From IMG/VR virus record IMGVR_UViG_3300034062_006900, positions 1 through 64,000 of that record: a stretch of DNA of 64,000 nt; one strand, given 5' to 3'. Below the pieces are notes generated by a model. It was given only the letters and a program-made list of their open reading frames with translations. It ran no database searches and was not told the origin of the DNA. Positions 698 to 53,834 of the stretch are shown here, in pieces (the stretch's first letter is position 1; each line of letters begins with the position of its first letter). A program made the position numbers and the translations under genes. This stretch comes from a virus.

Positions 698-1210
698 TTA
701 ATTTGAAACCGCAAATCCATAGGATAAAATAATTCTCGGGATTTGACCCTCAACTCGGGTTGTAGAATGAGGAATTACCCCTGATTCCACTTTTAAGAGG
801 GTTCTTTCAGTTATATTTATGACTTTACCGTCATAAATTGGTAATCCTCCTTTTTCGGGTAATGATATAAAAACATTGTATCTTCTTGAATGTAATTCTT
901 TGTTACTTGGGTTGGCATCAACATGTTCTGGCACTTTAGCTCCGTTTCTTTGGACACTTACAAAATCTCCTCTGTATGGTTCAAATTTATTATTTTCTAA
1001 ATTTTCAATTTCAATTATCCTTTTTTTTATTTCGAAATTTAAATCCAACTTTTCAGGTATTTTTTTGAATAATTCTCGACTTCTGTAAGGTCCGGTTGGA
1101 TTTGGAATTAGATATTTTTCATTCCTCAGAGCCCACTCTCGAATAATTCTCTGTTCCTCTTCAGATATGAAATTATCATAGAAATATGTTGAACCAATTT
1201 CATGTTTCAT
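698..1210 (-). CDS. 2OG-Fe(II) oxygenase
   Basis: HxD (EHVD), distal His (PHST), RxxxS (RIILSY); start at MKHEIG downstream of TATTTAT. Confidence 0.8.
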   Translation of the reverse strand: MKHEIGSTYFYDNFISEEEQRIIREWALRNEKYLIPNPTGPYRSRELFKKIPEKLDLNFEIKKRIIEIENLENNKFEPYRGDFVSVQRNGAKVPEHVDANPSNKELHSRRYNVFISLPEKGGLPIYDGKVINITERTLLKVESGVIPHSTTRVEGQIPRIILSYGFAVSN

Positions 1211-1238
1211 ATTCATAAATATTATTATATTTATTAAC

Positions 1239-1616
1239 ATGTTTAAAGAGGAGCTCTTACAGGAGAAATTAAAATATTTGATAATGTCCGAACTTCAGGG
1301 GAAGTTCGAAATTTTGGACTTTCGTGTTGAATTCAGTTATTCTGAACCTCAAATTTTAGAAGCATATGACGTTGACGTTAAATTTGATTATTTATCGACA
1401 ATCGATAGTCAGGCAAGTGATTTCGGATATGATATCAATAAAATGTCTGATACGTTCAGAAAAGCAGTTCAAAAATATCAAATAAATAAGGAAGGCAAAA
1501 TTGTTACCAATTCAGAATATCTCGTAAGCGATGGCATGATTTGGGGCATCGAATTTCAAGCCGACACAAAACATGTTTTCGAAATGTCCTTTAATGTTAA
1601 TCTATGGTTAGATTAA
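1239..1616 (+). CDS. hypothetical protein
   Basis: ORF with TATTTAT motif upstream. Confidence 0.7.
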   Translation: MFKEELLQEKLKYLIMSELQGKFEILDFRVEFSYSEPQILEAYDVDVKFDYLSTIDSQASDFGYDINKMSDTFRKAVQKYQINKEGKIVTNSEYLVSDGMIWGIEFQADTKHVFEMSFNVNLWLD

Positions 1617-17919: not shown

Positions 17920-18102
17920 ATGGGATGCGGATGTAAAAATAAAGGGAATCAAACCCCAGCACCAGCCACTCAAACTACGGCTCAACAAACAGAACAGACA
18001 AATGTAACTCAAGAATCAGTTAAAAGTTCTATCAAAAAAACAATCGAAAAGTATTACAACGTAAATAAAACTTCTTCGACAAACGGATGGATTAAAGGGT
18101 AA
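17920..18102 (+). CDS. small MGCGCK protein
   Basis: ORF followed by a terminator at 18130-18156. Confidence 0.65.
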   Translation: MGCGCKNKGNQTPAPATQTTAQQTEQTNVTQESVKSSIKKTIEKYYNVNKTSSTNGWIKG

Positions 18103-18169
18103 TAATTCAATTTAAAACATTTATAGACTAAGGGACAAAAATTTGTCCCTTTTTTTGTATTTATAATCA

Positions 18170-19171
18170 ATGGAGATTGAAGAATTTATAGAGATGTTTA
18201 ATAACAATGACTTAGATGTTAAAAAATATTTTAACAACTACGCCACTTGGTTTTCCATTCTCAAAAAAAGAGGTCTTATGGGGGAAATTGACCCCAAAAA
18301 TGCTTCTGATGGTGAAGAATGGCAAAATGAATATCTTCTTTGGTTATATGATAACGATAGGGAAAATTATTACAAATGGATTCCGAGTTTGTTGGACGAT
18401 GTAATTTTCGAAAACGGTCAGGCATATTTAGAAGTTTCTGATAGAGGTGATTTAGCCAAGTTATTTTGTGATGGTCATAGATATGACTTATCAAGAGACA
18501 CAATTGAAAATATTTTATCAGGTGATAGTGATGTATGGGAACATTATTGGGACACAACAGATAATGTATACAGAGATGTTATTGAAGAACTAACACCTGA
18601 TAATGATAAAAGGTTAGGTAAATACATAGTTGACACTTTGAACGGTCAACAAATTTCAGCAGAAACGGATGAACTTCAACTTATAGCCACTGAACAGGGT
18701 CATCCAGAATACGCAGTAATAACTATGGAAAACGTCAAAAGAATTATCGATAATGAGGAAACTATGAAAGAATTACTTGATAACCAATTGAGTGATTTAA
18801 AAAATGAATTATATTCCATTCATAATTCTGCATATAATTCTGCATATGAATCTCAGGTTTGGGATGAGATATGGAGTGAATTAGAAACTTATTTCGAAGG
18901 TCATGGTGAATGGGTTACAAGACCCCACCCTTACAAGAAAAACACTGAAATTCAATATTTCAAAATACCGATAACAAACTTTGAAAAAGATGTAAATGAC
19001 TACCTATTTAATGCTAAGGGATGGGGTAATTCAGGCACTTTGGAATATCATGGAAGTTACTTAGAAATTATGCGAGAAGATAGAGATTGTTTAAGTGCTC
19101 AAGCACCCGATTACCCTGACAGTCGCAGGGTAGATAAAAACATAAATGAGTTTTTCAAGGAATATATTTAA
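18170..19171 (+). CDS. acidic hypothetical protein
   Basis: ORF with TATTTAT at 18158-18164. Confidence 0.75.
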   Translation: MEIEEFIEMFNNNDLDVKKYFNNYATWFSILKKRGLMGEIDPKNASDGEEWQNEYLLWLYDNDRENYYKWIPSLLDDVIFENGQAYLEVSDRGDLAKLFCDGHRYDLSRDTIENILSGDSDVWEHYWDTTDNVYRDVIEELTPDNDKRLGKYIVDTLNGQQISAETDELQLIATEQGHPEYAVITMENVKRIIDNEETMKELLDNQLSDLKNELYSIHNSAYNSAYESQVWDEIWSELETYFEGHGEWVTRPHPYKKNTEIQYFKIPITNFEKDVNDYLFNAKGWGNSGTLEYHGSYLEIMREDRDCLSAQAPDYPDSRRVDKNINEFFKEYI

Positions 19172-19962
19172 TGAACATCGATAATATCATATCTAAAGTT
19201 TTGGGAGAGGAGAGAGGTTTTACCCCACCCAAGAATCCTCCAAAGAATATCAAAAACATATTGAGCCAAGTTCAGTTGTTCGAAGTATACCCAAGCATAT
19301 TTGCCGTTGTTATTAAAGATGACAGATTAAGAGCCAGAGTTTTTATGCGTTACCAAGAATTCTATGAATCAGACTCAGACACATTCAGAGGTAAAGGATT
19401 CAAATGGAAAGATTATACAAAGTATTACAAAGAAAAAACTAAGAACAATATACTCACTTACCATGAAGATTGGGCTGGTTACAACATCCCTTGTAATTCA
19501 ATTGAGTCTTGTATCGCATTAATCCCCGACATTAACTATTACGATTTAATTATGTTTAGCATCGTTGATACCGTAAGAGCTGTAGTTGGTGATGATGATT
19601 ATTATTTAATTGGTATCGACCAAAGTAATGGTGAAGACCCATCTTTAATATATCATGAGGTTGCTCACGGTCTTTGGTTCTCATCACCTGAATACAAAAG
19701 CCAACAGTCCTACAACATCGAAAACATGGACCAAGTCACAAGAAATCAAGTTGCAAAAAAGATTTCAGGTATGGGTTATGGAGAAAATGTTATAGATGAT
19801 GAGATTCAAGCATATTTATCTACAGGTATTGGTGATGATATGAAAAGAATCAAAGGTATCAAAGAAGCTCAAATCCCTTTTAAAGATACTTTTGATGAAT
19901 ACTCAACTCAAATCAAACCTAAACAAATACCAATCGATTGGAGAACTGACTTAGACAAATGA
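19171..19962 (+). CDS. HExxH zincin-like protein
   Basis: IYHEVAHG...DEIQAY. Confidence 0.65.
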   Translation: MNIDNIISKVLGEERGFTPPKNPPKNIKNILSQVQLFEVYPSIFAVVIKDDRLRARVFMRYQEFYESDSDTFRGKGFKWKDYTKYYKEKTKNNILTYHEDWAGYNIPCNSIESCIALIPDINYYDLIMFSIVDTVRAVVGDDDYYLIGIDQSNGEDPSLIYHEVAHGLWFSSPEYKSQQSYNIENMDQVTRNQVAKKISGMGYGENVIDDEIQAYLSTGIGDDMKRIKGIKEAQIPFKDTFDEYSTQIKPKQIPIDWRTDLDK

Positions 19963-20807
19963 TGAAATTTATACCCATATTAGAAACTGTTATTTTAGAA
20001 CAAAAGAGATTTAAGTTTGACCCCGAGACATATGCAAATATGGTAAGAATCACTGAGAAGTTATGGGGATTAAGAAATAAAGAATTGACAAGAAAGACAC
20101 AAGTTGATGGGTTTAAATTCAAAACTTCTGATGGAACTGACGGTTATGTCAAAATAATTATTAACCCAAGATTAAAATATATTGGATATATGGATACAAG
20201 ACCTAAGGATTCTCGTGACCCAATGGATTTTGTAATGGAAGTTCAACCAAAAGAATATGTTTCGAAGAAGAATTTATTCTTAACGATATACCATGAAATG
20301 CTTCACGCTACTGACCCATCACAATCAACAAAACTTAACCAAAAGTATCAGACAACATACAACGAAAAAAGTGACAAACAGTATTGGGGCCATCCTATCG
20401 AGTTCAGAGCAATTACAAATGAATTCTTGGAAGGTTTGGTTTTAGAATATAAGAGAAGATTCGGTAGACTTAGAAATCAAGAAAACAGAAAGTTTCTTTC
20501 TAAATCCCTTAAGAATATTCTAAACTACTTTGCTAAAGGTGAACCCTTATCTAAATTATCTCTTGATGTTATTAGCAGAATAAATGATGAAAATGTTTTA
20601 GATAATAAAATATCTCAACTTGTTTCTGATATGCCAACAGATTTCCCTGGTGTCTCTGAATTTATGGGCACAAAGGAGGAACCTTATTACATCACATACA
20701 TTGAATTAATTAAGAAACATAATCCTGAAATATGGAAAAGATTCTTAACCATGTTATACAATACATCTTATGAGATTGAAGATATTCTAAAAGAAAAAGG
20801 GGTTTAA
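19959..20807 (+). CDS. HExxH zincin-like protein
   Basis: IYHEMLHA...[10 protein letters not shown]. Confidence 0.65.
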
Positions 20808-22843
20808 ATTAACCCCTTTTCTTTTGCTATAATTTCTAATGTTTCTAATTTAGACTCGCTATCATCAAGAATAGCTGATTGTTCTTTAATTGCTTCTAAA
20901 CATAACGCAATCATATCATAATACTTTATCTGATAATATGAATTTTCACTATCTGATTTGAAGACTAATTCAGGAACTACGTGTTGAACTTCTTGTGCAA
21001 TAAAACCTATTTCACGTTCAGTCTCTCTATTTTCTGCTTGATAATCAAAATTCTTCCAATCGTAGTATACACCTCTAAGTTTGAGAACTTTATCTAATGC
21101 TCCTTCGATGGTTTTAATTTCTTTCTTAAATCTTTTATCTGACGGTCCTGGTGCACCTGTTGCTCCTTGAGCACCTTGTGGTCCTCCTGGTCCTGGTCCT
21201 CCTGCAGGTCCTTGTCCTCCTGGAACTCCCTGGAAACCTGTTGGTCCTCCAGCTCCTCCCGGTCCTATAAATCCTGTAGGTCCAGTTGCACCTTGAGCCC
21301 CTTGTGGACCACCACCTCCACCAGGTCCCCCAGCACCTTGAGCACCTGTTGCTCCACCACCTCCTTGAGCTCCTTGGAATCCTACAGGGCCTTGAGGACC
21401 TTGGGCTCCTTGTGGACCTTGTCCTCCTTGAGAACCTTGCGAACCTTGTGGCCCAACAGAGCCTTGTCCTCCTTGCGGACCACGTCCACCTTGTGAACCT
21501 TGTGGTCCTACGGCACCTTGTGAACCTTGTGGACCTGTCGGTCCTTGAGCTCCTTGAGCACCCTGTCCACCAGCAGGACCTTGTCCACCTTGAGGACCTC
21601 GTCCTCCTTGTGAACCTTGTGGTCCTACGGCACCTTGTGAACCTTGTGGACCTGTCGGTCCTTGAGCTCCTTGAGCACCCTGTCCACCAGCAGGACCTTG
21701 TCCTCCTTGGGGACCTCGTCCTCCTTGCGAACCTTGTGGTCCAACAGCACCTTGAGCACCTTGAGGACCCGTTGGTCCTTGAGAACCTTGGGCTCCTTGA
21801 CCTCCTCCAGGTCCTTGAGCTCCTTGCGAACCTTGACCTCCTTGAGAACCTTGTGGTCCTACAGGACCTTGAGCTCCTTGTGGACCTTGTCCCCCTTGAG
21901 AACCTTGGGCTCCTTGACCTCCTGTTGGTCCCTGAGCACCTTGCGAACCTTGACCTCCTTGAGCACCTTGAGCTCCAACAGCTCCTTGGGCACCTTGCCC
22001 ACCTTGTGAACCTTGACCTCCTTGAGCACCTTGTCCACCTGCAGCCCCACCAGCACCTTGAGCACCTTGACCACCTTGTGAACCTTGTGGTCCTACTGGT
22101 CCTTGGGCTCCTTGTGGTCCTTGACCACCTTGAGCACCTTGAGCACCTTGACCTCCCGCGGTTCCTTGAGCACCTTGTGAACCTTGACCTCCTTGAGCTC
22201 CTTGAGGTCCAGTATCACCTTGTGAACCCTGTAATCCTTGACCTCCTTGAGCACCTTGTGCTCCTTGACCTCCTGTCGGACCTTGGAACCCTTGAGCACC
22301 CTGTGCACCAGCGGCTCCCTGAGCACCCTGACCACCTGTTGTTCCCTGAGCACCTTGACTTCCTTGTGCACCGGCAGTTCCTTGAGCACCTGTTCCTCCT
22401 GAGTTTCCTTGAGCACCTTGGAAACCTTGAGCACCTGCTAGTCCTTGAGCTCCTTGAGCACCTGTGGGACCTTGGAAACCTTGAGCTCCTGTTGCACCTT
22501 CAGTTCCTTGTGCACCTTGTCCTCCAACAACTCCTTGCGACCCAGTAAAACCTGAAGCACCTTGAAAACCTTGAGGACCTTTCGGTTGTTGGTTTCCACG
22601 CCATCCTGTAGAGTTTATGATAGGGTTAACCGCAAAATTTGTGATACTAGCAAATCTGAGGTCAGCACTAGTAATCCTAAAGTTTGGATAAGAATTATCA
22701 ATGTTCAGATTCCATGATTTTGCACCTTCGAAAAATCTTAAGGTTCCAGATTGTATTCTCCACCCAATAATTGTATCATCAAAACTTTGAAAGTTTATTA
22801 TAGGGACAACGGGAATTATATTAATATTTTCATTTCCGGGCAT
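20804..22843 (-). CDS. collagen-like fibre protein with peptidase S74 chaperone (C)
   Basis: About 160 Gly-X-Y units then [10 protein letters not shown]...GFIAQEV..VPELV. Confidence 0.9.
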
Positions 22844-24948
22844 TATATTAATTCTTTTAACACATTTATTCTTTCGAGTATTGACTCAATTTTTTTCTGA
22901 TTCTCTTGAACACTACCAACACCTATACTTACCATATAATTATATTGAACTGACTTATATCCATCATAATCTGTAAAAACAACTTCAGGTAAAACCTCTT
23001 CCAAATCTTGAGCAATAAATCCTATCGAAGAACCTGTAAAAGCAAACTTATTTAAATTTAGTTTATTGTTCTTTATTTTATCATGTTCTTCATCCCATGT
23101 AAAAGAAACTCCTTCAATTTGTTTTGCAATTGATAACGGATTCTCAATTTTCTTGATATTATCTTTTAACCTTCTGTCCGATGGTGGTCCTGTTGGCCCT
23201 TGAGCACCTTCAGGCCCTGTTCCTCCTGGAGGACCTGGATTACCTGTAGGTCCTGGAGGACCTGCAGCTCCTGGACCTCCTGGCCCACCTGCTGGTCCTG
23301 GAGGTCCTTGTAGTCCTTTAGGACCTGGTGCACCTGTTGGTCCTGTTCCACCTCCTGGTCCTGGAGGACCTTGAGCACCTTGACCTCCTGTTCCACCTGT
23401 TGCACCAGCAGCTCCTCCTGTTCCTGTAAATCCTTGAGCCCCTATAAAACCTGGCGGTCCTACAGCTCCTTGAGCACCTTGAGTTGAACTTTGAGAACCT
23501 TGAGCTCCTTGGAATCCTGTAACGCCTTGAGCTCCTTGAACACCACTTTGAGAACCTTGGGCACCTGTTGGTCCTGTTGGACCAGGAGCTCCTTGAGCAC
23601 CTGTATTTCCTCCTTGCGAACCTTGAGCTCCTTGGAATCCTGTAACACCTTGAGCTCCTTGAACTCCACTTTGAGCACCTTGGGCTCCTGTTGGTCCTGT
23701 TGGACCTGGAGCTCCTTGAGCACCTGTATTTCCTCCCTGTGAACCTTGAGCTCCTTGGAATCCTGTAACTCCCTGAGCACCTTGAGTTGAACTTTGAGAG
23801 CCTTGTGCTCCTGTTGGTCCTGTTGGCCCTATATTACCTTGAGCTCCTTGACTAGGTCCTTGTGAACCTTGAGCACCTTGAGCACCTGTGTTTCCTGTTG
23901 CACCTGGTGTTGTGCTTTGAGAACCTTGGGCTCCTGTGAAACCTGCAGGTCCTGTCGCTCCTTGAGCTCCTTGCGTCACTCCTGTAGGACCCGGATTACC
24001 TGTAAATCCTTTTGGTCCTGTTGCACCCGCAACTGCACTTTGAGCACCTTGTGCTCCTGTGCTACCAGGTGCACCTATATTACCTTGAGCACCTGTATTG
24101 GCTCCTTGAGGACCTTGTGCTCCTTGTGCTCCTGTATTACCAGTCGCACCCGCATTTCCACTTTGAGCTCCTTGAGCACCTGTGAAACCTGTCGGACCTG
24201 TTGCTCCTTGTGCTCCTGTATTGGCACCTTGTGTTCCTTGTGCACCTGTATTACCTGTTGGACCTGTAGCACCTGCCGTTGTGCTTTGGGCACCCTGAGC
24301 ACCTTGGAAACCTGTCGGTCCTGTTGCACCTTGAGCACCCTGTGTAACTCCTTGGGGGCCAGGAAAACCTGCAAATCCTTTCGGACCTTGAGAACCCTGA
24401 GCACCTGTATTTGCACCTTGTGTTCCTTGAGCACCTGTATTACCTGTAGCTCCCTGAGAACCTTGTGCTCCCTGAAACACTCCCTGTGCACCTTGAGCCC
24501 CTGTAAATCCTGTGTCTCCCTGAGCACCTGATGCACCTGAAACATTACTTGTTGGTCCCTTAGGACCTGTTGCACCTTTCGGACCCTGAGCACCTTGTGC
24601 TCCACCAGCACCTCCCTGTGCACCTTGAGCACCTTGAGCACCTGTGATACCTTGAGCTCCCGTGTCTCCTGTTAAACCCTTAATACCATCCAATGGACCA
24701 ATCCATACACCTACGGTGTTTATCATGGCAACACCACCAACGTAAGTAATACCATTTGTAATTGAAGCTCCTGATGATGTTATGTTGGTATTACTTATTT
24801 CGAAACCTGCAGATACGGTTGCTGAAGATAAAGACAAAGCACCCGTAGACTTAACGTTGAATTGTAATTTAGACGTGTCATCATCAAAAACAATATGAGG
24901 GTCTGAATTTCCAGTTGTTCCTGTAGGATATATAATAACATTAGGCAT
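22843..24948 (-). CDS. collagen-like fibre protein with peptidase S74 chaperone (B)
   Basis: Gly-X-Y with periodic one-residue stutters then [10 protein letters not shown]...GFIAQDL..LPEVV. Confidence 0.9.
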
Positions 24949-27242
24949 TATGATAATTTGTTTTCAAGTTCGTTAATTTGTTCTTTGATATCTTCTATAA
25001 ATACTTGTTGTGATTTTATAGCCTCAACCAACACACTATTCAATTTATTGTAATCAATATAATAATATCCTTCTCCATTTATTGATACCACTTCAGGAAA
25101 ATATAATCTCACATTCTGAGCAATTAGTCCGATAGCGTGAAGTCTTTGATGTTTTTCGAAATATGCATATTCAGATTTATTTAAATTAGTATTCCAATCA
25201 TACTCTACCGCCTCCAACATCATTACCTTTTCTAATGCGTCATATATTGTTTCAATTTTTGTTTTTAAATTGACATCAGAAAAGTAACTACCGCAATCAG
25301 AATTATAATTTCCAAACCCACAAGTATTAGCAACATCATAACACACGCTTGATTCTACGGCTCTAGTCCAATAACTGTTCCAATCACAAGTTCCATTGAC
25401 ACAGTTTGTAACATTAAGATATTTGGCTTCAAGCATACCTGTTGCAGCATTATTTTGGCGAACAGATTGAGTGGACGGCATATTACACGCCGCTGTACAG
25501 CTACCACCCACAAAAAAAGCATATATTCCACAGGTTACTGCTGCAGGTCCCGTAGCACCCTGTGCTCCTTGAGCACCTGTTGGGCCTGTTGGACCTGAAG
25601 GTCCTGGTCCTCCCGTTGGGCCACCACCACCCTGAGGACCTCTTGGTCCTGGCGGACCATCAACACCTTGGAATCCTTGTCCTCCTTGAGCACCTTGAGC
25701 ACCCTGTCCACCTCCACCACCTGGAGGTCCTTGAGCACCTTGGCTTCCTTGGCCTCCACCACCTCCGGGACCGCCTTGTGGTCCTCTTGGTCCTACAAAA
25801 CCTACAGGACCACCTGGTCCTCCCGGACCTGTCGCACCTGTGGGTCCTAATAATCCTGTGTCTCCTCCTGCTCCTGTCGGACCAGCAGCACCTGTAGGCC
25901 CTAATAGACCTTGAGCTCCTGTTGGTCCTGTAGGTCCTAATGGTCCTGTTGCACCTTGTGCTCCAGGATGTCCTGTTCCTCCACCCGCTCCTGTCGGACC
26001 AGCAGCACCTGTTGGTCCTAATAGACCTTGAGCTCCTGTTGGTCCTGTAGGTCCTAATGGTCCTGTTGCACCTTGTGCTCCAGGATGTCCTGTTCCTCCA
26101 CCCGCTCCTGTCGGACCAGCAGCACCTGTTGGTCCTAATAGACCTTGAGCTCCTGTTGGTCCTGTAGGTCCTAATGGTCCTGTTGCACCTTGTGCTCCAG
26201 GATGTCCTGTTCCACCTTGTGAACCCGTGGCTCCCTTTGGTCCTGTCGGTCCTAATAAACCTGTTGCACCCGTCGGTCCTGTTGGGCCTCCTGGTCCTGT
26301 AGCACCCGTCGGTCCTGGAGGACCGTCTACTCCTTGAAATCCTGTGGCTCCTTTTGGTCCTGTGGGTCCTAAAGCACCTTGAGCTCCCACAGCTCCACCT
26401 GGACCTGTTCCTCCTGTCGCACCTTGTGCTCCAGCAAATCCTGTAGCACCTTGAGCTCCAACAGCTCCACCTGGACCTGTTGCACCTATGGCTCCTTGAG
26501 CTCCCGCAGAACCTCCTGGCCCTGTTGGTCCTGTAGCACCTTGAGCACCTGGATTTCCCGTTCCTCCTTGAGACCCCGTTGCACCCTTTGGTCCTGTTGG
26601 TCCTAATAAACCTTGAGCACCTGTTGGTCCTGTTGCACCTGTTGCACCAGCAGCTCCTGTTGGTCCTGGTGGACCATCAACTCCTTGAAATCCTTGAGCA
26701 CCTGTGTTACCCGTGGCACCTTGAGCACCTGGATGTCCTGTTGCACCTTGAGCACCCACATTACCCTGTGCACCTATTGAACCTTGAGGTCCTAAGTTAC
26801 CCTGTGCTCCTATTGGACCTTGAGGTCCTGTATTTCCTTGTGAACCCGTTGGTCCAGGAGAACCATCAACTCCTTGAAAACCTTGAGCCCCTTGAGCTCC
26901 CACAGCACCTTGAGCTCCATTATGCCCTGTCGAGCCCTGAGCTCCTTGAGGACCTTGAGCTCCTTGAAGACCTTGGGCACCTGTAAGTCCACTCAGTGAA
27001 CCTACCCAATCAGCTGTTCCATTAATTACCTGAACTCCACCTACCGTATAGTTGTCTATAACATTAATAGTATTTCCTGACACAATTCCACTCGCTAATG
27101 CAAGACTCGGTGTAGAACCGAAAGTAAGTGTTCCTGTCGTTAACATTCTAACACGAATACTAGCACTATTAATGAAATCAATATATGGGACCCTATCAGG
27201 AGTTCTAAAAATCGCGTTACTTGGGACAATTGTTATTGGCAT
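24948..27242 (-). CDS. collagen-like fibre protein with Cys-rich tip and peptidase S74 chaperone (A)
   Basis: Gly-X-Y tract, ~85-aa Cys-rich segment, [10 protein letters not shown]...GLIAQNV..FPEVV. Confidence 0.9.
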
Positions 27243-27368
27243 GAAAATAATTTCTTAACTATAAATACCATATAGAACAAATATCTCACATAAAATTTTA
27301 AGATATTATTCAATTGGTATTTTAAATTTATTATACTTTGATTTGTAATAAATATTTAGAAAAAAATA

Positions 27369-28121
27369 ATGATACTAAAAAACACAAAAAACAAATTGTC
27401 CGAGATTAATTTGTTCTCAGATTATATTTTGAATCAAATACCTAACTCTGAAAGAAGTATAATCAAAATTGCTGATTGTGGTAATTTTCTAATCATCAAG
27501 GGTAAAACGACCCACAATGAATTATTAGATTTATCTAAAATAAAAACAGAATTTTGTGAGAAGTTTAATATAAATTCTGACCCCAAATCTATTTTCAGTC
27601 ATATGATAGATTTGATTGAATATGGTGTAAATCTACAACCAACAGAATCTATCACTCACAACTACTTCAACAGCGAAAACTGTTCTTACAGTTATAAACA
27701 AGTTGAATCCTTTAAAAATAATCCTGAGTCTTCTTATGATTATTGTTTAAAGGTAAAGGAAGTCGATGAGAACGATTTGATTCTTGTTTCTGAGTTCCCT
27801 CACGGTCATTCATTAGAAATGGGAAGATTACTTTATTACTATGGTAAGAAAATAACTTACTCAATTCCACCCACTTACCCATACACTTCTGTCGTGATGA
27901 CCATCCCATCAAAAGACCCTGAAGAAAATTTCTCTGTTTATGATAATTTCTTGGAGTCTGAAGATGATAGTCTTAGGTCAGCTGTCTTAGATGTGTTTGA
28001 TTTTGACATGACTGAATTAAATAAAAAACTCAAAGAAGTTGATTTCTACGATGAGATAACCAACCCTTTGAGTGATTATGATTTCCTTAAAGAAAGGAAT
28101 AAAGATTTCTTTGTTATCTAA
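27369..28121 (+). CDS. hypothetical protein, possibly a degenerate MetK-like fold
   Basis: NLFSDYIL...LIIKGKTT loosely echoes MetK DQISDAIL...VLVGGEITT. Confidence 0.55.
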   Translation: MILKNTKNKLSEINLFSDYILNQIPNSERSIIKIADCGNFLIIKGKTTHNELLDLSKIKTEFCEKFNINSDPKSIFSHMIDLIEYGVNLQPTESITHNYFNSENCSYSYKQVESFKNNPESSYDYCLKVKEVDENDLILVSEFPHGHSLEMGRLLYYYGKKITYSIPPTYPYTSVVMTIPSKDPEENFSVYDNFLESEDDSLRSAVLDVFDFDMTELNKKLKEVDFYDEITNPLSDYDFLKERNKDFFVI

Positions 28122-28417
28122 ACGATACCAACTTTCTTACGATGTTTCTTTACAATATCTAACGCTTCAGTTAGTTCCATATAGTCTCTATCAGGTGCAT
28201 ATAAGAAAGATTTAGGATTTGTATTTGAATCTTCAATGATTAAAAGTGCTGGTATCATATCATTTTTTGTTACCTCACTGAAAATATCATACTCTTCTTT
28301 ATATTCATCAATATCTCTATCGATGTATTCTATTTTATTTTCCTCCAACATTTTTTTGAAGTCCGTGCAATGAGGACAACCTTTCATTGTATAAACAACC
28401 ACGTTTAAATCTTTCAT
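28118..28417 (-). CDS. glutaredoxin/NrdH-like protein
   Basis: VYTMKGCPHC, IP cis-Pro motif. Confidence 0.85.
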   Translation of the reverse strand: MKDLNVVVYTMKGCPHCTDFKKMLEENKIEYIDRDIDEYKEEYDIFSEVTKNDMIPALLIIEDSNTNPKSFLYAPDRDYMELTEALDIVKKHRKKVGIV

Positions 28418-28423
28418 AATAAA

Positions 28424-28747
28424 TTAATTTAATAAGGTCATTACCTCATTAGGAGACATTACGCCAGCCTTTGAGAATACCTCTTTGCCTTCTTTGAAGA
28501 TTTTTATTGTTGGAACACTTCTGATTCCGAGTTCAGTCATCACATATTCTTTGTCTGTGTCGATATCATATTTGTAAATGTTATAAGATGGTGAACCATT
28601 TGATTCTTTGATTAAAGATTCATTCACCTTTGATAGGTTGTTGAGCATGATTTTGCAAGGTCCACACCATGTGGCGAAAAGGTCCAACACAAAGTTTTCA
28701 CCTTCACTAATTTTTTGTTTAAGTTCTGCTGTTGTTAGTTGTTTCAT
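28424..28747 (-). CDS. trxA: thioredoxin
   Basis: FATWCGPCK, IRSVPT. Confidence 0.9.
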   Translation of the reverse strand: MKQLTTAELKQKISEGENFVLDLFATWCGPCKIMLNNLSKVNESLIKESNGSPSYNIYKYDIDTDKEYVMTELGIRSVPTIKIFKEGKEVFSKAGVMSPNEVMTLLN

Positions 28748-29072
28748 TTTTATATTGTTTTAATAATTGTGACAAGAACAGATATAATTCATTATACTGT
28801 TCAACGTTATAATAAATAGTTAATTTCGAAATTGTATCTGATTGAGGAATCACTCGGATTTTAACATGTAAATAAAAGTTTTGTTGACTCTTGAAAATTA
28901 CTTCTTCGAATTTTGTAAAGCCCATCTCAGTCATCGAGGATTTTTCATAAACTCTTGTCAATTTTCTTTCGTGGAGAAACTTTAAAAATTCTCCTTTGAG
29001 TTCGTAACAAACCATAACTGAAAAGAAATTATCTTTCGATTCTAAATTTTGTATGTATTCTGGTTTTTCCAT
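28719..29072 (-). CDS. hypothetical protein
   Basis: Coupled ORF. Confidence 0.65.
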   Translation of the reverse strand: MEKPEYIQNLESKDNFFSVMVCYELKGEFLKFLHERKLTRVYEKSSMTEMGFTKFEEVIFKSQQNFYLHVKIRVIPQSDTISKLTIYYNVEQYNELYLFLSQLLKQYKNETTNNSRT

Positions 29073-30715
29073 TAGATTGGTAAATAAAAATTTGAATAAT
29101 TGTTTTCGATGTTAGTAAAAGTCCACCTTAATAGTCCACTATCATTCCAATGCGTATCAGAATTTAACGTCATTCCATTGTTACACTTCTTAATCAATTT
29201 AACGGTCTCAAATCTTTTATCTCTAACACAAGATAATACTACTTGGTCTAATTTCAAGAGAACAGTTGTCCAATCTTCCTCCAACTTTTGGTTGAACTTC
29301 CCCAAACTTTGGACTCTATCCGCATAAATGACATCATCTTTTTTTGTCAGTCTATATTCTATCGTTGCTCTTTCGTTTAGAGATTCACCAGTCCTCACAG
29401 AAATAATCAAACAACTTGGTTTTCCGATATACCCTTTCACGCAGTTTGATTGGTGATTACTTTCCTCGTTATATCCATCACTTGTATCAAGAAGGACAGG
29501 GTGAAAATCATCATAAATTGGTTGAGCAATCATTTCATACATATACTCTGGGTATATCCTTGTGTAAATCCCCTTTCTGTAGTGTTGAAGTTTATCTGTC
29601 CAATCCAAATGTTCTCTGTTAAAATCGTATTTGTTTTCAAATGAATACCATTTCAAATCATGTTCTCCAAACATTTTTAATTCTGTATACATTCTGATGT
29701 GGTCAACGAAAGTATATGTGTCTAAGTTCTGATGAACGTATGTTTCTTTGAATAAAGAATAAACTCTTTTTAATTCATCTGTTGTAACTAATTCGAGGAA
29801 TAATTCAGGAACCGCAAATGACCCGATGATTGAGTTCAATAAATCCAATATTACATTTCCATCTTGATTCAACCAATCATCACCAAATAGTTTTCTTGCT
29901 GTAATATAAAGACTTATATTCAGGTTGGTGCATTCATGCAATGCTTTTTTGATTTTCTTTCCATGAAGTCCATGCTTCGCCATTACAGCGTCAACAAGTC
30001 TACCATTCTTTTTCTTTATCAACTTTTTGATTTCGGGACCAAACAGGGCTTCAGTGTATATGTTGAAATTGTTCGGATATTTGATTCCTCTTTTATTAAG
30101 ATAAAATCTCAATAGTCTATCACTATAATTCAATTGTTCAAAATTGGTTCTCTCGTCAATAGCGAACATGAACTCAGAAACTGCTTGGGTTACTTCATCA
30201 TATGCATTATCTGTATAGTGAGTAAAAAGATTCTTCATTTGGGATTTTAGTCCATTCAACGGGTCATTGATAAAACAATTTCTTCTTATACTTTTAACAC
30301 ACTTTTTTTTTCTTTGATACCCATGAATGTGTCCGTGATAGACATCACCAGTCTTAGTATTAACTGAAATGTAATTAACATTCTTGCTAACCTTGAACCA
30401 TGGTCTTCCTTCTCTTCTATTTTTATACCCTTGAAACATTTTGATAGCAACCTTATCCCCATTTCTTTCAACCACAACCATTACGTATTCGACCATTACA
30501 GAATATAGTTGGTTTGCAAAGTTTTCAACAAAACATTCTTCTGTTGTATTTGAAGATTCCCTAACGAATAATGGGTGTTTTTGTGTAGGTGTTTCCTCTA
30601 TAACCAATCCGAACAATTCGGACATGTGAGTATTTTTTGATTTAATAACATTACAGTCTCTGAACTTAATACTATTATACTTCTTAAAACTTATCTTATA
30701 GATTTCTTCTTTCAT
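29072..30715 (-). CDS. PcfJ domain protein
   Basis: EESNHQSNCVKGY...RATIEY...Q.LGKFN; TATATTTG element at 30721-30728. Confidence 0.75.
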   Translation of the reverse strand: MKEEIYKISFKKYNSIKFRDCNVIKSKNTHMSELFGLVIEETPTQKHPLFVRESSNTTEECFVENFANQLYSVMVEYVMVVVERNGDKVAIKMFQGYKNRREGRPWFKVSKNVNYISVNTKTGDVYHGHIHGYQRKKKCVKSIRRNCFINDPLNGLKSQMKNLFTHYTDNAYDEVTQAVSEFMFAIDERTNFEQLNYSDRLLRFYLNKRGIKYPNNFNIYTEALFGPEIKKLIKKKNGRLVDAVMAKHGLHGKKIKKALHECTNLNISLYITARKLFGDDWLNQDGNVILDLLNSIIGSFAVPELFLELVTTDELKRVYSLFKETYVHQNLDTYTFVDHIRMYTELKMFGEHDLKWYSFENKYDFNREHLDWTDKLQHYRKGIYTRIYPEYMYEMIAQPIYDDFHPVLLDTSDGYNEESNHQSNCVKGYIGKPSCLIISVRTGESLNERATIEYRLTKKDDVIYADRVQSLGKFNQKLEEDWTTVLLKLDQVVLSCVRDKRFETVKLIKKCNNGMTLNSDTHWNDSGLLRWTFTNIENNYSNFYLPI

Positions 30716-48695: not shown

Positions 48696-50342
48696 CTATT
48701 TAATTCCTAATTTTTTTAGTATGTATGATTCTATATCTTCCTTCTTCATCGTGTAAGGTATACGGATAAGTTTGATTCCGTTTTTCTTACAGTATTGGTT
48801 TTTTATTTCATCTCTGATTTTTTGTCTCTCAAAAGCTTCTTCACCACCAAAAGTATCAATCGCCATAAAATGTTGCCTTCCATCATATTCCACGCACACA
48901 TTCTTTATTGGTATGTAAAAATCGAATGGTAGTTTTCTACAAAATCTTCCTTCTTTTTTATTCGTACAATCCACAAATTTATATTGTTTTATAAAATCTA
49001 TTTTTTGTTTTTCTAATATGGCTGCAATTAATTTTTCTCCAGTTGATTCGTTACAAATTGGACATCCTTGTCCGCTTAAGTGGGCACCAGGTCTTTGTTT
49101 AAAAGTTCCATGAACCGGACAAACAATATCAACATATTTGTTTCTATTTTTATAGTCGACTAAAGAATAATTGTATTTTTTGCCGTGAACAATTTTAGCC
49201 GACTTAATAAAATCTTCTGTGTTACTAACATTACTCTTAGATATTGATTCAAAACCACATTTTTGACATCCACTTCCACTCATATGAGCGTGAGGTGTTT
49301 GTAAAAACTCCCCATGAATTGGGCAAATAATTTTTACACGATTATTAATACCATCGTATTCAACTTTCGAATAATCATATTTATCATCATGAACAAGATT
49401 AGATTTGTTAATAAATTCATCTTGAGTTAAACTATTTGCTTTACCAGTATTTTCTCGGGCACATTTTGGACATCCAGCACCGTCAAGTAAGTGATGTGCC
49501 GTAACTTTAAAGTCTCCGTGTTTTGGGCAGGTAACTATAACTTTTTCTGATGCCCCTTTGTATTGGGTTTTGGAAAAATCATATTTATCTCCATGAACAA
49601 TTTTTATTTGTTTGAGAAATTCTTCAGGTGATTTTCTTTGTTTTTCTGCCGAGCTTTCTATTCCACATTTTGAACAACCACTACCCCTTAAATGACTTGT
49701 AGATGTTTGGAAAAATTTTCCATGTTCTGAACAAATAATTTCAATTGGTGTATAATTGTTTTTATAAACAGATTTTGAATAATCATATTTATCTCCGTGA
49801 ATTTCTTTAGCATTTTCTATGAATTTTTGGGTATTTGTTGATGTTAAAGATTCTCTCTTTGACTTCCTATTTTGAAGGTCTTTTTCTTTGGCACAGGATG
49901 GACATCCGTAACCCATTAAATGATTTCCTGGTGTTTGTCCAAAATCTCCATGAATGGGACAGGTAATGACTACTTTTTTTCCTCCTCCTTGATAATCCAC
50001 TTTTTTATATCCGTATTTGTCTCCGTGCTTTTCAATCGCTTTGTTCACAAAACTATCCTTATTACTTGTTAACTTTTCTTTAGCACTTTCACGACCACAT
50101 TTTGGACAACCTTGTGGATTAACATTTGATATAAATTTATTTGGTGTTTTGGTAAATTCCCCATGTATTGGACAAACAATGGTGACAGGTTCTCCGCTAT
50201 TTTTATACTTTACCTTTGAATAATCATATTTGTCTCCGTGAATTGTTTTAGCCTTTTCAATAAATTCAGGAGTAGTTGTTTTTTTTATCTCACCAATCTC
50301 CTTCGTATGTTCACGCAATATATGTCTAATCAGTTGTTTCAT
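48696..50342 (-). CDS. endonuclease with seven zinc-ribbon repeats and a Vsr/DUF559-like C-terminus
   Basis: 7x HGDKYDYSK..Y....V.I.CP.HG.F...P..H..G.GCPKC; LPFDFY, VEYDGRQHF, KLIRIPY. Confidence 0.85.
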   Translation of the reverse strand: MKQLIRHILREHTKEIGEIKKTTTPEFIEKAKTIHGDKYDYSKVKYKNSGEPVTIVCPIHGEFTKTPNKFISNVNPQGCPKCGRESAKEKLTSNKDSFVNKAIEKHGDKYGYKKVDYQGGGKKVVITCPIHGDFGQTPGNHLMGYGCPSCAKEKDLQNRKSKRESLTSTNTQKFIENAKEIHGDKYDYSKSVYKNNYTPIEIICSEHGKFFQTSTSHLRGSGCSKCGIESSAEKQRKSPEEFLKQIKIVHGDKYDFSKTQYKGASEKVIVTCPKHGDFKVTAHHLLDGAGCPKCARENTGKANSLTQDEFINKSNLVHDDKYDYSKVEYDGINNRVKIICPIHGEFLQTPHAHMSGSGCQKCGFESISKSNVSNTEDFIKSAKIVHGKKYNYSLVDYKNRNKYVDIVCPVHGTFKQRPGAHLSGQGCPICNESTGEKLIAAILEKQKIDFIKQYKFVDCTNKKEGRFCRKLPFDFYIPIKNVCVEYDGRQHFMAIDTFGGEEAFERQKIRDEIKNQYCKKNGIKLIRIPYTMKKEDIESYILKKLGIK

Positions 50343-50402
50343 CTCACAATAAATATCTTTGGAATTAAAAACCCCCACCGTTGAGGGTGAGGGTTGATAT
50401 TT

Positions 50403-51455: not shown

Positions 51456-53834
51456 CTATTGTGAGACTTTTGATACATTATCAGTTTTTGTAATATGAAC
51501 TACATTATCCGCCCAATTTGAGATTAATGGGTTGTGGCTAATCACAAATATCTTTTCGAAATAATCCTTTAACTTCATAAAGAAGTCCCCAACCATCTCA
51601 AGGTTATCATTAGAAACCTTACCCCAAGTCTCATCGTAAACTGATATGTTTGGTTTTGGAAGTGAACATACCTTAGCCAATACAGCTCTGATAGCCAACG
51701 CTCCCACAGTCTTCTCATATCCTGAACCTGCGGTCATAGGTTTTTCGATACCTGTTCCGTTATCAATCATGATGAAGTCAACCTCATTCTTGTCATTGAT
51801 ACGAATCTCCAAGTTGAAGAAACAAGAGTCTTGAAGTAATCTTTGAAGTTCAGAGTTAATCAATGGCATCATTGTCTTCATGATAACTTTTGTGATTCCA
51901 TTCTTTCCGAATACCTCAAGATATATTTTGTATATCTTTTCTCTTTCGAATTCTTCGGCAATCTTTAGGATGGTCTCGTTGTTCTTTTCAATTCGAGCTT
52001 GAAGATTTTCAATCTGAGTTGAATTGGTTGTTTGAGTTCTCTCATACCCTCTCTTCTCAGAAATCAATTCATCAATTCTCATTTCGGCTTTAACCAACTG
52101 AGCTTCAATCTCATTATTCTTCTTAATCTTATCTTGAACTTCTTCGTATCTCCTTAACTTGTCTTCAGATTGTTCCAATTTTAAATTATTGGCTTCAAGA
52201 GTCGCCTCATATTTTTCCTTAACAAGTTTCGCTCTTTCATATTCATCAAAGTCTTTCTTAAGTTGAGTAAAAGATTCTTCTTTCTTTTCAAGGCCTTCAA
52301 TTTCTTTTTTGAATTCCTTAACAAGTTTTTTATATCCTTCAAGTTGGTCAATCTTTTTCTTGGTCAACTCAGCTTCCATCAATTTGATTCCACAGTGTTC
52401 ACACTGAATTCCATCACCATATTTTTCAATAAGGTCTTGGATTTCTTCCACCTTATTCTCACAGGTTACTTGTTCAGCAAAACGGGATTTGATAACTTCT
52501 TTAACCGCATCGTGTCTATCTTCATGATAAAACTCTTTTGGTTCAGATATTTTAACATCATCAATCTGACCTTGGATTCTTCTTCCAACTACTTTAAATT
52601 CGTCAATCTGACCCTTAAGTCTTTCAGGATTCAGAATAACCAAATCTTGGTCTAAGTCAGTGAATTTTGATTTCAATAAGTCATCCTTATAAGTTTGACC
52701 CTTTTGTAATCTCTTGTCAACATCCTTGATTTTGGTAACAGCCTCTGCAATTTCATTCTCGAGTCTTTCAATTTCTTCTTTTGACGTGGTGCTATCTTGT
52801 TTTAAGGATTCTGTATTGTATACGTTGGATAACATACCTTTTGAAAACTCAGAATAGATTTCTTTTCCCGTCTCTTCTTTCTTCTTTAAGAATTCAAGAC
52901 CCAAGAATCTACTTAACACCTGACCACGAGCTGTTGGTTTTGCTTCCAACAAATCCTCAAGGTTTGACGCTGTCGTTACAATGGTCATCAAGAAGTCATC
53001 CATCTCACCAATTGATGTTTTGATAAAGTTCTCAGTCTCCCTTCTTTGTTCACCAGTGAAGTTCTGTAATTGACCGTCAGCCAACTTCTTGAAGAAGTCC
53101 AACTCAGTCTTAACATTCCATTCACCAGCCTTAGATTTTTTTCTTTCAATCTTTCGAGCGATGATATATTCCTCGCCATCAATGATGATGTCACCCTTAA
53201 CTGATACCACATTCTTATCTGTGAATCTGTTGAAGATTTCCTCAGCCTTCTGAGTCTTGGTTGTCGTGTTGAAGAATAAGAACAATAACAAGTCCACGGT
53301 CAATACCGTCTTACCTCCGAAGTTCGGTGGGTCTGATTCAACCACTGTGATACCATTACATTTATCAAAATCGATAACCTGGTTCTCACCATACGATAAG
53401 AAGTTACTGAATTCAATCTTCTTGATATACCATCTTTTGAATGGTGTAACCTCAACCTCATTAGCCATCATTCTGTTTTCAACAGCAAGGTCAATGTTCA
53501 TGACTTGGTCATAAAACTGGTCTTGTCCTTTTGACTCAAGAAGAGATTTGATAAGTTCTTTCTGATAGTTCTTATCCATAATGTTAACCGCTACATCGAT
53601 TGTCTGTTGAGTTTCCTCAGTTGTCTTCGCCTTGGTTATAACATTGATATTTGCGGAACTATACTTCTTCATGAAGTATTGTTTCACAGACTTGATTCTT
53701 TCTTGGGTGAAATTCTCTGGAGCATCCTCCCATATTACTTGTATGTTAGGATTCTCCAAAGTAGATATATCTAATTTTGTTGACATATGTTTGTAGTTAT
53801 ACTCTGGATGTGGATTGAATAAATCCCATTTCAT
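51456..53834 (-). CDS. Rad50/SbcC (gp46-like) ATPase
   Basis: FSNFLSYG, NFGGKT, CEHC hook, SGYEK signature, VYDE Walker B, ISH. Confidence 0.92.
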   Translation of the reverse strand: MKWDLFNPHPEYNYKHMSTKLDISTLENPNIQVIWEDAPENFTQERIKSVKQYFMKKYSSANINVITKAKTTEETQQTIDVAVNIMDKNYQKELIKSLLESKGQDQFYDQVMNIDLAVENRMMANEVEVTPFKRWYIKKIEFSNFLSYGENQVIDFDKCNGITVVESDPPNFGGKTVLTVDLLLFLFFNTTTKTQKAEEIFNRFTDKNVVSVKGDIIIDGEEYIIARKIERKKSKAGEWNVKTELDFFKKLADGQLQNFTGEQRRETENFIKTSIGEMDDFLMTIVTTASNLEDLLEAKPTARGQVLSRFLGLEFLKKKEETGKEIYSEFSKGMLSNVYNTESLKQDSTTSKEEIERLENEIAEAVTKIKDVDKRLQKGQTYKDDLLKSKFTDLDQDLVILNPERLKGQIDEFKVVGRRIQGQIDDVKISEPKEFYHEDRHDAVKEVIKSRFAEQVTCENKVEEIQDLIEKYGDGIQCEHCGIKLMEAELTKKKIDQLEGYKKLVKEFKKEIEGLEKKEESFTQLKKDFDEYERAKLVKEKYEATLEANNLKLEQSEDKLRRYEEVQDKIKKNNEIEAQLVKAEMRIDELISEKRGYERTQTTNSTQIENLQARIEKNNETILKIAEEFEREKIYKIYLEVFGKNGITKVIMKTMMPLINSELQRLLQDSCFFNLEIRINDKNEVDFIMIDNGTGIEKPMTAGSGYEKTVGALAIRAVLAKVCSLPKPNISVYDETWGKVSNDNLEMVGDFFMKLKDYFEKIFVISHNPLISNWADNVVHITKTDNVSKVSQ

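Follow-up and report, generated by a model that had tools for sequence, protein, structure and literature searches.

Three adjacent collagen-like genes in a phage genome raise the question of whether their products wind together into one mixed triple helix or build three fibres of their own. The genes lie on the minus strand at 20804-27242 of the window, the whole stretch of 64,000 nucleotides that was analysed (positions 1 to 64,000 of IMG/VR record IMGVR_UViG_3300034062_006900), and their carrier is a freshwater jumbo phage, as yet uncultured, with a genome of roughly 300 kb. A Megablast search of phage records with 18000-30000 gave no match to a cultured relative, and tblastn of the first protein in cultured phages returned only S74- and tip-level matches.

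Gene and domain organization of the trio

The ORF parse of the window and Pfam searches identified gene A (24948-27242, minus strand), a tip-bearing chain of 764 aa, gene B (22843-24948, minus strand), an interrupted chain of 701 aa, and gene C (20804-22843, minus strand), a plain chain of 679 aa without a tip. An earlier note on this DNA had described three translationally coupled paralogs, each with a common N-domain, about 160 Gly units and a C-terminal S74 domain, and this description held. Alignment, parse and Pfam found in each chain an ~85-aa paralogous N-domain, followed by ~160 Gly triplets and then Peptidase_S74, and both gene junctions are TAATG. At the A/B junction (24946-24950) the stop of A and the start of B have one base in common, as do the stop of B and the start of C at the B/C junction (22841-22845), and both overlaps are read from the sequence as translational coupling. 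No Shine-Dalgarno was found ahead of the B and C starts in the sequence at the two junctions. The operon begins with an AT-rich leader (27243-27368, minus strand), a putative promoter region with a TATTTAT box ~20 nt ahead of the A start.

The N-domains, delimited by paralogue alignment, lie at 26991-27242 in A (aa 1-84, beta-rich, 18 orthologues aligned), 24688-24948 in B and 22580-22843 in C. They are pairwise 25-29% identical and have P2, P19, I21, F23, G37, L39, I73, N74, W79 and G81 in common, and a fold search gave no convincing match (best Z 5.5; nothing with Foldseek). The S74 domains lie at 24951-25280 in A (counted from the S-D-x-x-x-K motif, with the Pfam match at aa 655-719), 22846-23181 in B and 20807-21139 in C. 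They match Peptidase_S74 (PF13884) with E-values of 2e-10, 2e-15 and 4e-17 and scores of 41, 57.4 and 62.8 bits, respectively, the Pfam cut-off being 22. The three domains are 37% identical and all carry the S-D-x-x-x-K motif, whose S, D and K are invariant in the three paralogues and 18 tip-chain orthologues. By structure, the S74 domain of A matches the MyRF ICA domain 7dc3 (Foldseek probability 0.98, VIA Z 5.0), the endosialidase chaperone 3gw6 (Z 5.0) and T5 pb1 4uw8 (Z 3.6), and that of B has a sequence match to the S16 long-tail-fibre 6F45 (E 9e-8).

A Cys-rich tip had been noted in A alone, and the parse agrees: it separates the collagen from the S74 Ser in A only, while in B and C the Ser stands directly behind the collagen. 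The tip (25281-25541, ~87 aa) is hypervariable with four conserved Cys in the orthologue alignment. Modelled alone, it forms a compact alpha/beta domain as a single chain (pLDDT 74-85), a weak structural hint in favour of a mixed helix, and its fold search gave no convincing match.

The collagen regions were recognized by Pfam with E-values of 9e-48 (A), 2e-41 (B) and 9e-38 (C). With regard to the long (Gly-X-Y)n of PF01391, A has 161 perfect, uninterrupted triplets (25542-26990) and C has 160 (21140-22579), the final GPS of C including the S74 cleavage Ser. B (23182-24687) has 161 triplet-equivalents with 19 one-residue insertions spaced every 6-7 triplets; its 502 residues comprise 136 triplets, 13 four-residue units and 6 seven-residue units. 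Formation of a triple helix by these regions is predicted. A search of the contig for a prolyl-hydroxylase (PF13640) gave only a sub-threshold match (17.9 bits).

Using Tandem Repeats Finder, a 117-nt array was detected in C (21398-22285, 7.6 copies) and a 117-nt, 13-triplet array in A (25854-26213, 3.1 copies, 97%), for which a longer call (25872-26635, 6.5 copies) extends the overall span to 25854-26635. In B, 123-nt arrays occupy 23464-23973 and 24023-24339. The period in the window is thus 13/13/13 triplets for A/B/C, or 39/41/39 residues, and the equal unit count that had been reported despite differing sequence was recovered, with 117 nt in A and C and 123 nt in B. In a layout anchored at the C-terminus, the youngest repeat copies sit at an equal level in the three chains. 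Public short-read (Logan) contigs end within the youngest repeats, at 25929-26184 in A and at 21518-21674 in C, so the copy numbers of these two chains, which the contigs neither support nor contradict, rest on the original assembly; the B array at 23465-24238 is spanned by public contigs with zero differences. No RNA data set is listed among the sequencing runs that contain this DNA.

Length and period across relatives

More than 40 viral contigs from fresh water carry the conserved trio, their trio loci being labelled L plus a number, and 21 dereplicated complete trios were used for length comparison. Across these trios the collagen spans 118-361 triplets, and in 13 of the 21 the chains differ by no more than a few triplets. 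The triplet-equivalents for A/B/C are 161/161/160 in the window, 156/156/157 in L059, 142/142/140 in L007, 118/120/118 in L060, 119/119/118 in L063, 262/264/262 in L037, 270/270/269 in L038, 174/174/178 in L003, 144/143/141 in L001, 158/157/156 in L076, 221/221/222 in L009 and 361/361/362 in L049. On a tree of the non-collagen domains, sister genomes shift in step (+14/+14/+15, +14/+14/+17 and +140/+140/+140). Independent contrasts, computed with two zero-branch variants dropped or branches floored, gave r(AB) 0.62, r(AC) 0.75 and r(BC) 0.91 (p <= 0.0014); raw contrasts are weakly correlated because three assemblies with identical flanks and differing repeat numbers create zero-length branches. 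The check for length co-variation that the earlier note had proposed thus shows that the lengths are not independent. About a quarter of the genomes (5/21) are mismatched by about whole periods (L066, 151/139/165; L056, 134/134/104; L012, 131/160/145; L088; L089); short-read assembly may have collapsed repeats in these cases, or such differences may be tolerated.

The match is one of triplets. In B the insertions add 8-52 residues relative to A and C, though the triplets match, and globular inserts in one chain (PA14 or a ~200-aa domain) are not counted in it. For example, A of L005 has 90 triplets, PA14 and 82 triplets, 172 in total, and its C has 172, and in L009 and L049 a ~200-aa insert accounts for a constant excess of +77. 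The proposal that lengths are independent, as A is 200-300 aa longer in some relatives, was rejected for this reason. Gene conversion was also rejected as the source of equal lengths, since paralogues of one genome are only 63-69% identical in their collagen DNA and lack extended stretches in common. The N and S74 domains are ~32% identical between paralogues versus 38-60% between orthologues, which places the duplication before the family, inside which lengths vary three-fold.

The family-wide period is 7/14 triplets, with one chain gaining one residue per 7 triplets. In residues it is 42/44/42 or 42/43/41 in relatives, and 39/41/39 in the window and L023-L026; the 13-unit super-period earlier seen in all three chains is real and a derived variant of 7/14. 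Since an AU test did not reject L023-L026 and the window as one clade (p 0.36), the 13-triplet period can be counted as one or two events, and an independent origin in L023-L026 was set aside. In the C-terminus-anchored layout, the arrays of the three chains hold common columns for 8-14 periods.

Interruptions do not occur at matching levels in different chains: only B is interrupted in the window, and in the L007/L059 clade B gains and C loses one residue every 14 triplets, offset by ~7 triplets. Counted from the C-terminal end, the interruptions of L059 lie at 19, 32, 46, 60, 74, 88, 102 and 116 in B and at 12, 23-27, 36, 49, 62, 75, 88 and 101 in C, an index that assigns no triplet to the two-residue units of C. 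When each two-residue unit is converted by hand to one defective triplet, the series become ~20, 33, 47 ... 117 for B and ~13, 26, 40 ... 110 for C. As B and C interleave, one interruption per 7 triplets is held at the level of the trio. Conserved partner triplets facing the B insertions were considered and rejected, for the phase relation varies by clade and the A and C residues opposite the insertions differ between clades. In the window, three of the six aromatic residues of A line up with aromatics of C without any shift. Such irregular landmarks coincide in the window only, and cross-correlation of aromatic and hydrophobic landmarks between chains gave no general signal in other genomes.

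Every complete locus, permuted ones included, encodes a single chain of each kind: tip-bearing, interrupted and plain. The gene order is A-B-C in most relatives and A-C-B in one clade. In L009 and L049 the N-domains have changed places cyclically relative to the collagen and S74 modules, yet every N type and every S74 type is still present once. The point that homotrimers of B or C would lack a distal domain holds across the family, as every relative has exactly one tip-bearing chain.

One mixed helix or three fibres

Beside the observed gene structure, domain families, length lock, period lock, lack of gene conversion and one chain of each type, the reading towards which we lean is that A, B and C wind into one ABC heterotrimer nucleated by three diverged S74 domains. 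Each gene would supply one strand of a single collagen triple helix, ~138 nm long here, which would be the rod of a phage adhesin fibre. The TAATG-coupled operon would yield the chains in near-equal amounts, and the S74 domains would join one of each at the C-termini, comparable to procollagen C-propeptides and the gC1q heads of C1q. This S74 trio would fix the register of the chains and start the helix zipping from C to N, after which each S74 domain would self-cleave at its Ser. The three diverged N-domains would form a one-of-each proximal knob docking on the virion. The mature fibre would bear one hypervariable Cys-rich tip, from A, and in some lineages one lectin-type domain (PA14 or the ~200-aa beta-rich domain) would loop out of one chain. 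Seven triplets make one superhelical turn of the 7/2 collagen helix, and the residue that B adds at about this interval would bulge from that chain alone, each time on one face of the rod.

Structure prediction of the three N-domains with 18 collagen residues gave an ipSAE of 0.56 (runs 0.53, 0.63 and 0.56; best control 0.02), with partner pLDDT of at least 59 and at least 73% of contacts in agreement, which the tool rates as weak support. This mark was reached by 58/80 solved complexes and 2/110 mismatched pairs; the range of 0.60 or under holds 7/80 solved complexes and both mismatches, and the prediction does not separate ABC from AAA/BBB/CCC, as close cousins of a true partner also pass. 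Several findings speak against one helix: each chain has its own complete S74, five of the 21 genomes are mismatched, the A and C residues opposite the B insertions differ between clades, irregular landmarks coincide in the window only, and nothing in A or C matches the 19 insertions of B. Within a mixed helix these insertions would have to bulge, because a single-chain shift of +1 otherwise breaks the Gly stagger, and they may cause kinks; a B homotrimer would accommodate them easily.

The strongest alternative, which we consider possible and clearly the less likely account, is that each chain forms a homotrimeric fibre of its own, with its own S74 and N-domain (A3 carrying a trimeric tip, B3 and C3 as bare whiskers), and that selection keeps the periods equal because the fibres work as a set, for example for the same reach from the virion. 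In each chain the N-domain and the S74, including its Ser-Lys motif, are indeed complete, characterised S74 fibres are all homotrimers (PMC4690869 for T5 pb1), and the interruptions of B, unmatched in A and C, sit naturally in B3. Lengths change in quanta of 7-14 triplets, so the near-exact equality needs only an equal period number, which separate fibres under selection could keep too, and the quarter of genomes mismatched by whole periods also fits them. However, separate fibres leave unexplained why the match is in triplets and not residues, why in-line globular inserts are ignored by it, and why the period is 13 in all chains here and 14 in all chains elsewhere. They also do not account for the interleaving of B +1 and C -1 ~7 triplets apart or for two tipless rods kept 1:1:1 with an adhesin chain in more than 40 contigs, and a difference of 6-12 nm should hardly affect flexible fibres that are 35-100 nm long.

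Three homotrimers side by side in one in-register bundle, with the 7-triplet period as lateral contact on one face, would fit the period and length lock, the 21-residue period being one supercoil turn of the 7/2 helix, and would tolerate the overhang of mismatched genomes, but this is improbable, since B3 with 22 residues per period drifts ~0.3 nm per period against the 21-residue A3 and C3, the match is in triplets and not residues, most relatives have no recurring lateral-contact residues (charges, aromatics), and we know of no phage fibre bundle of this kind.

Comparison with known collagens and S74 fibres

To our knowledge, mixed three-chain collagen has so far been physically shown for animal collagens only, and bacterial and viral collagens are treated as homotrimers. 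The chances are about even that the trio is a natural obligate ABC collagen outside animals, with register set by co-diverged self-cleaving S74 and N-domains, a one-residue bulge per superhelical turn in one chain, and 7/13/14-triplet periods gained and lost in step. If so, chain-selective collagen assembly evolved independently in viruses. Heterotrimer composition and register control are a long-standing problem of collagen design, for which the trio would offer small removable registration domains (S74) and hydroxyproline-free sequences with GAQ-type triplets, available in nature in dozens of lengths from 35 to 100+ nm. It would also be a new adhesin design, in which a rod carries a single tip or lectin domain, monomeric and hypervariable, and three genes that gain and lose repeats in concert adjust the length of the rod. 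If the fibres are separate, a length lock to a single period and a period lock over three genes would still be an unexplained constraint.

Every experimentally studied S74/ICA protein known to us (endosialidase, T5 pb1, MyRF) is a homotrimer. K1F endosialidase, T5 pb1, S16 gp37 and MyRF resemble the trio in having a C-terminal S74 with S-D-x-x-x-K behind a trimeric rod, and autocleavage of the trio S74 domains after trimer folding is predicted. The known S74 fibres are homotrimers of one gene product, their rods are beta-structured and they have a distal domain for binding, whereas in the trio three diverged S74 types always occur together, two of them directly behind bare collagen, and the rods are locked in length and period. 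The comparative evidence from the genes argues for one of each chain type.

In C1q a cluster of three genes encodes the A, B and C chains, and only some of these have an interruption. The trio would work in a similar way, with clustered paralogues, equal-length collagen regions and C-terminal trimerising domains for chain selection and register; it has no sequence relation to C1q beyond G-X-Y. Unlike in C1q, its registration domain would be a self-cleaving S74 that is discarded, and its rods are 4-13 times the C1q length and evolve by whole-period gain and loss. Scl1/2, BclA and prophage EPclA-type side tail fibres are hydroxyproline-free G-X-Y rods with flanking trimerisation domains that serve as surface fibres or adhesins. 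They are described as single-gene homotrimers with few or no interruptions, whereas the phage genes form an obligate trio with one periodically interrupted chain. The PCL triplets of Pasteuria ramosa, bacterial spore-surface and not phage proteins, are comparable by analogy only: their group 1, 2 and 3 collagen-like genes keep a fixed order and orientation, and heterotrimers have been raised as a possibility for them (PMC7743900).

The three collagen genes of the window

The three adjoining collagen genes lie on the minus strand in the order A (24948-27242, 764 aa), B (22843-24948, 701 aa) and C (20804-22843, 679 aa), each an ORF with Pfam Collagen and Peptidase_S74 matches. The sequence TAATG is found at the A/B and B/C junctions and no ribosome-binding site was seen upstream of either, indicating that the genes constitute one translationally coupled operon. 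Their N-domains, of about 85 aa, are paralogous (25-29% identity), and their C-terminal S74 chaperone domains, predicted to be self-cleaving, share 37% identity and keep the S-D-x-x-x-K cleavage motif. In A, 161 uninterrupted triplets lead into a Cys-rich tip of about 87 aa and then S74, while C carries 160 triplets with the S74 Ser directly after them. The B collagen of 502 residues is made of 136 triplets, 13 four-residue units and 6 seven-residue units, a total of 161 triplet-equivalents (Gly-X-Y triplets counted without one-residue insertions or globular inserts) plus 19 extra residues.

All elements of the earlier note's observation were borne out, namely the paralogous N-domains, the roughly 160 triplets, the S74 domains, the Cys-rich tip in A only and the repeat periods. 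Using Tandem Repeats Finder, the 117-nt period was recovered in C (7.6 copies) and in A (6.5 copies overall, with 3.1 copies at 97%). Public contigs break at the youngest repeats of both genes, so that the copy number of these repeats rests on the original assembly. The 123-nt period of B was recovered as well, and its array is bridged by public contigs without differences.

Just upstream of the operon (28118-28747, minus strand) are a glutaredoxin-like gene (99 aa) and a thioredoxin-like gene (107 aa, WCGPC), whose synteny is kept in relatives at 64-79% identity. A role for them in the disulfide chemistry of the Cys-rich tip is a guess.

Composition, length and period among relatives

Relatives were collected by scanning IMG/VR with a neighbouring gene and a B N-domain alignment, and JGI metagenomes with a C N-domain alignment. 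This yielded 93 loci, all from metagenome assemblies and nearly all from lake water, with the same trio on more than 40 contigs. N-domains were typed with HMMs and the collagen region was parsed in every locus. Every complete locus carries exactly one tip-bearing, one heavily interrupted and one plain chain. Synteny with the window is kept in the flanking genes at 65-80% identity, as against 38-60% for the fibre N-domains and S74 domains, so that the trio diverges more rapidly than the region around it. Three loci (L009, L048 and L049) have the genes in the order A-C-B and show a cyclic permutation of the N-domains relative to the collagen and S74 modules: the A-type N-domain is joined to interrupted collagen and a B-type S74, the C-type to the tip and an A-type S74, and the B-type to a C-type S74. 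Each N type and each S74 type is still represented once in these loci.

Collagen lengths were compared by A-, B- and C-type chain, counting collagen only and leaving out globular inserts. The A/B/C triplet-equivalents are 161/161/160 in the window, and in relatives 118/120/118 (L060), 119/119/118 (L063), 142/142/140 (L007), 144/143/141 (L001), 156/156/157 (L059), 158/157/156 (L076), 174/174/178 (L003), 262/264/262 (L037), 263/270/262 (L029), 270/270/269 (L038) and 172/159/172 (L005, its A chain divided 90 + 82 around a PA14 domain). The permuted loci L009 and L049 have 221/221/222 and 361/361/362. The earlier note had proposed checking whether lengths co-vary across related phages, and on a tree of the non-collagen domains sister genomes do shift equally in all three genes, by +14/+14/+15 triplets from L001 to L076, +14/+14/+17 from L007 to L059 and +140/+140/+140 from L009 to L049. 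Independent contrasts of log length gave r = 0.62 (A-B), 0.75 (A-C) and 0.91 (B-C) with permutation p <= 0.0014, a result that requires flooring branch lengths or dropping two assemblies that share identical flanks with L007 and whose zero-length branches swamp the unfloored contrasts. Five genomes (L066, L056, L012, L088 and L089) are mismatched, by about one to three whole periods, which would fit short-read repeat collapse or a tolerated single-step mismatch.

Two sources of equal length through copying were rejected. Gene conversion is ruled out by the paralogue collagen DNA within one genome, which is just 63-69% identical with many off-diagonal alignments. Recent duplication is disfavoured by the paralogue N and S74 domains, which are about 32% identical, below the level of orthologues across the family. 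The triplication thus predates the family, inside which collagen length varies three-fold.

The match extends to the repeat period. By autocorrelation, the uninterrupted chains repeat every 21/42 residues across the family and the interrupted chain every 22/44, equivalent to one extra residue per 7 triplets. In the clade of L007, L059, L056 and L066 the periods are 42/43/41, B gaining and C losing one residue per 14 triplets, and the interruptions of B and C interleave about 7 triplets apart when counted from the S74 end. In L059, the computed B interruptions fall at 19, 32, 46, 60, 74, 88, 102 and 116, and those of C, where two-residue units were scored as zero triplets, at 12, 23-27, 36, 49, 62, 75, 88 and 101. 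Conversion by hand, with a two-residue unit taken as one defective triplet, places C at about 13, 26, 40 ... 110 and B at about 20, 33, 47 ... 117. On this hand-converted index, the trio as a whole has one interruption per 7 triplets, split over two genes.

The window has periods of 39/41/39 residues, or 13 triplets in each of A, B and C. Elsewhere this period is found only in L023-L026, there in every chain seen. Grouping L023-L026 with the window as one clade was not excluded by the AU test (p 0.36), pointing to one or two coordinated period shifts. When the window chains are written in 13-triplet rows from the C-terminus, the arrays remain aligned by column over about 8 periods, and the youngest copies, which are nearly identical, stand at an equal level in all three.

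One heterotrimeric helix or three fibres

The length match acts on triplets rather than residues, disregards globular inserts in one chain, covers repeat period and interruption phase between chains, and is accompanied by a strict composition of one tip and one chain of each type. These are the requirements of an in-register triple helix with one chain from each gene (ABC), and the balance of the evidence leans towards A, B and C forming such a heterotrimer. An apparent objection to in-register assembly, A chains 200-300 aa longer in some relatives, was discarded, as the excess consists of globular inserts. A PA14 lectin-type domain of about 175-185 aa sits mid-collagen in the A-type chains of L005 (13430-16396, Pfam E 5e-10) and L066 (1289-4063, Pfam E 3e-9; flanking triplets 77 + 74). 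A beta-rich, Cys-containing domain of about 200 aa, which had no Pfam match, lies between N-domain and collagen of one chain in L004 (13456-16527, with a second insert of about 92 aa), L079, L009 (1780-5187) and L049 (78-4805).

Several observations weigh against the ABC heterotrimer. To our knowledge, every S74 protein studied so far is a homotrimer. The B insertions are unmatched in the other chains, lengths step by 7-14 triplets so that 'exact' equality means an equal number of periods only, and the three lengths disagree in a quarter of the assemblies. A set of three homotrimeric fibres of matched length (A3, B3 and C3) is a possible arrangement, though a rather doubtful one: if the fibres were independent and flexible, the triplet, period and phase match and the one-of-each composition would be poorly explained. 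Homotrimers held in a lateral in-register bundle are improbable.

An ABC rod is predicted to measure about 138 nm in this phage. In such a helix, each B insertion would bulge from a single strand, as A and C have no counterpart. From textbook collagen geometry we infer that a 21-residue period would equal one supercoil turn of the 7/2 helix and that the bulges or kinks would fall on the same face.

Structure prediction was applied to the three N-domains plus 18 collagen residues, using 18-genome alignments. The A/B/C complex gave an ipSAE of 0.56 (runs 0.53, 0.63 and 0.56) against 0.02 for the best control, rated by the tool as 'weak support'; paralogues of a homotrimer could score as well, and the result does not tell hetero- from homotrimers. 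In the reference sets, 58 of 80 solved complexes and 2 of 110 mismatched pairs passed the tool's mark; both mismatches but only 7 of the 80 complexes did so with a value of 0.60 or under. Partner pLDDT was at least 59 and contact agreement at least 73%. The B N-domain was modelled as a beta-meander (pLDDT 72) with no convincing match in fold searches (best Z 5.5). In the tip + S74 model, the tip from one chain is a compact alpha/beta domain (pLDDT 74-85), and the S74 fold matches MyRF ICA (7dc3), the endosialidase chaperone (3gw6) and T5 pb1 (4uw8), with a sequence match to the S16 fibre 6F45.

Collagen repeats and the S74 chaperone are already known parts. Neither a phage collagen heterotrimer nor a length-locked collagen trio was found described in full-text literature searches. 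In its working, C1q is the nearest analogue, having collagen stalks of equal length, registration domains at the C-terminus and three genes in a cluster; in genome layout it is the PCL 'triplets' of Pasteuria ramosa, where three collagen-like genes, from three groups, stand in fixed order (PMC13233619; 10.1101/2025.03.22.644704). The hypervariable tip with four conserved Cys, the PA14 and beta-rich inserts of some lineages and the faster divergence than neighbouring genes point to a predicted glycan- or surface-binding adhesin fibre.

The phage contig and its occurrence in lakes

The IMG/VR record, of which the window makes up the first 64 kb, is 76,752 bp long, and a CheckV completeness of 26% implies a genome of about 300 kb. 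Phage replication genes on the contig include a DNA primase, an exonuclease, an SbcC-like protein and methyltransferases. At 48696-50378 and 51456-53834 (minus strand), a gene for a 560-aa HNH/homing-endonuclease-like protein made up of several repeated modules (PHROG 559/681, E ~1e-116) adjoins an SbcC-like gene. Prolyl hydroxylases belong to the 2OG-Fe(II) oxygenase superfamily, to which 698-1240 (minus strand) has a sub-threshold match too weak to call (PF13640, 17.9 bits, E 3.6e-4). Past the window end, the contig breaks off within a fourth collagen-like gene (75436-76752, minus strand), in which at least 94 triplets, nearly all GSS/GTS, are followed by a non-S74 C-terminal domain of about 150 aa.

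Across 19 studies dated 2020-2025, sequence near-identical to 20600-27400 (78-96% of sampled words) was detected in 19 metagenome runs of lake water, so that the phage is widespread or persistent in lakes. Unique segments of the phage were unchanged across lake-water runs from 2020 to 2024.
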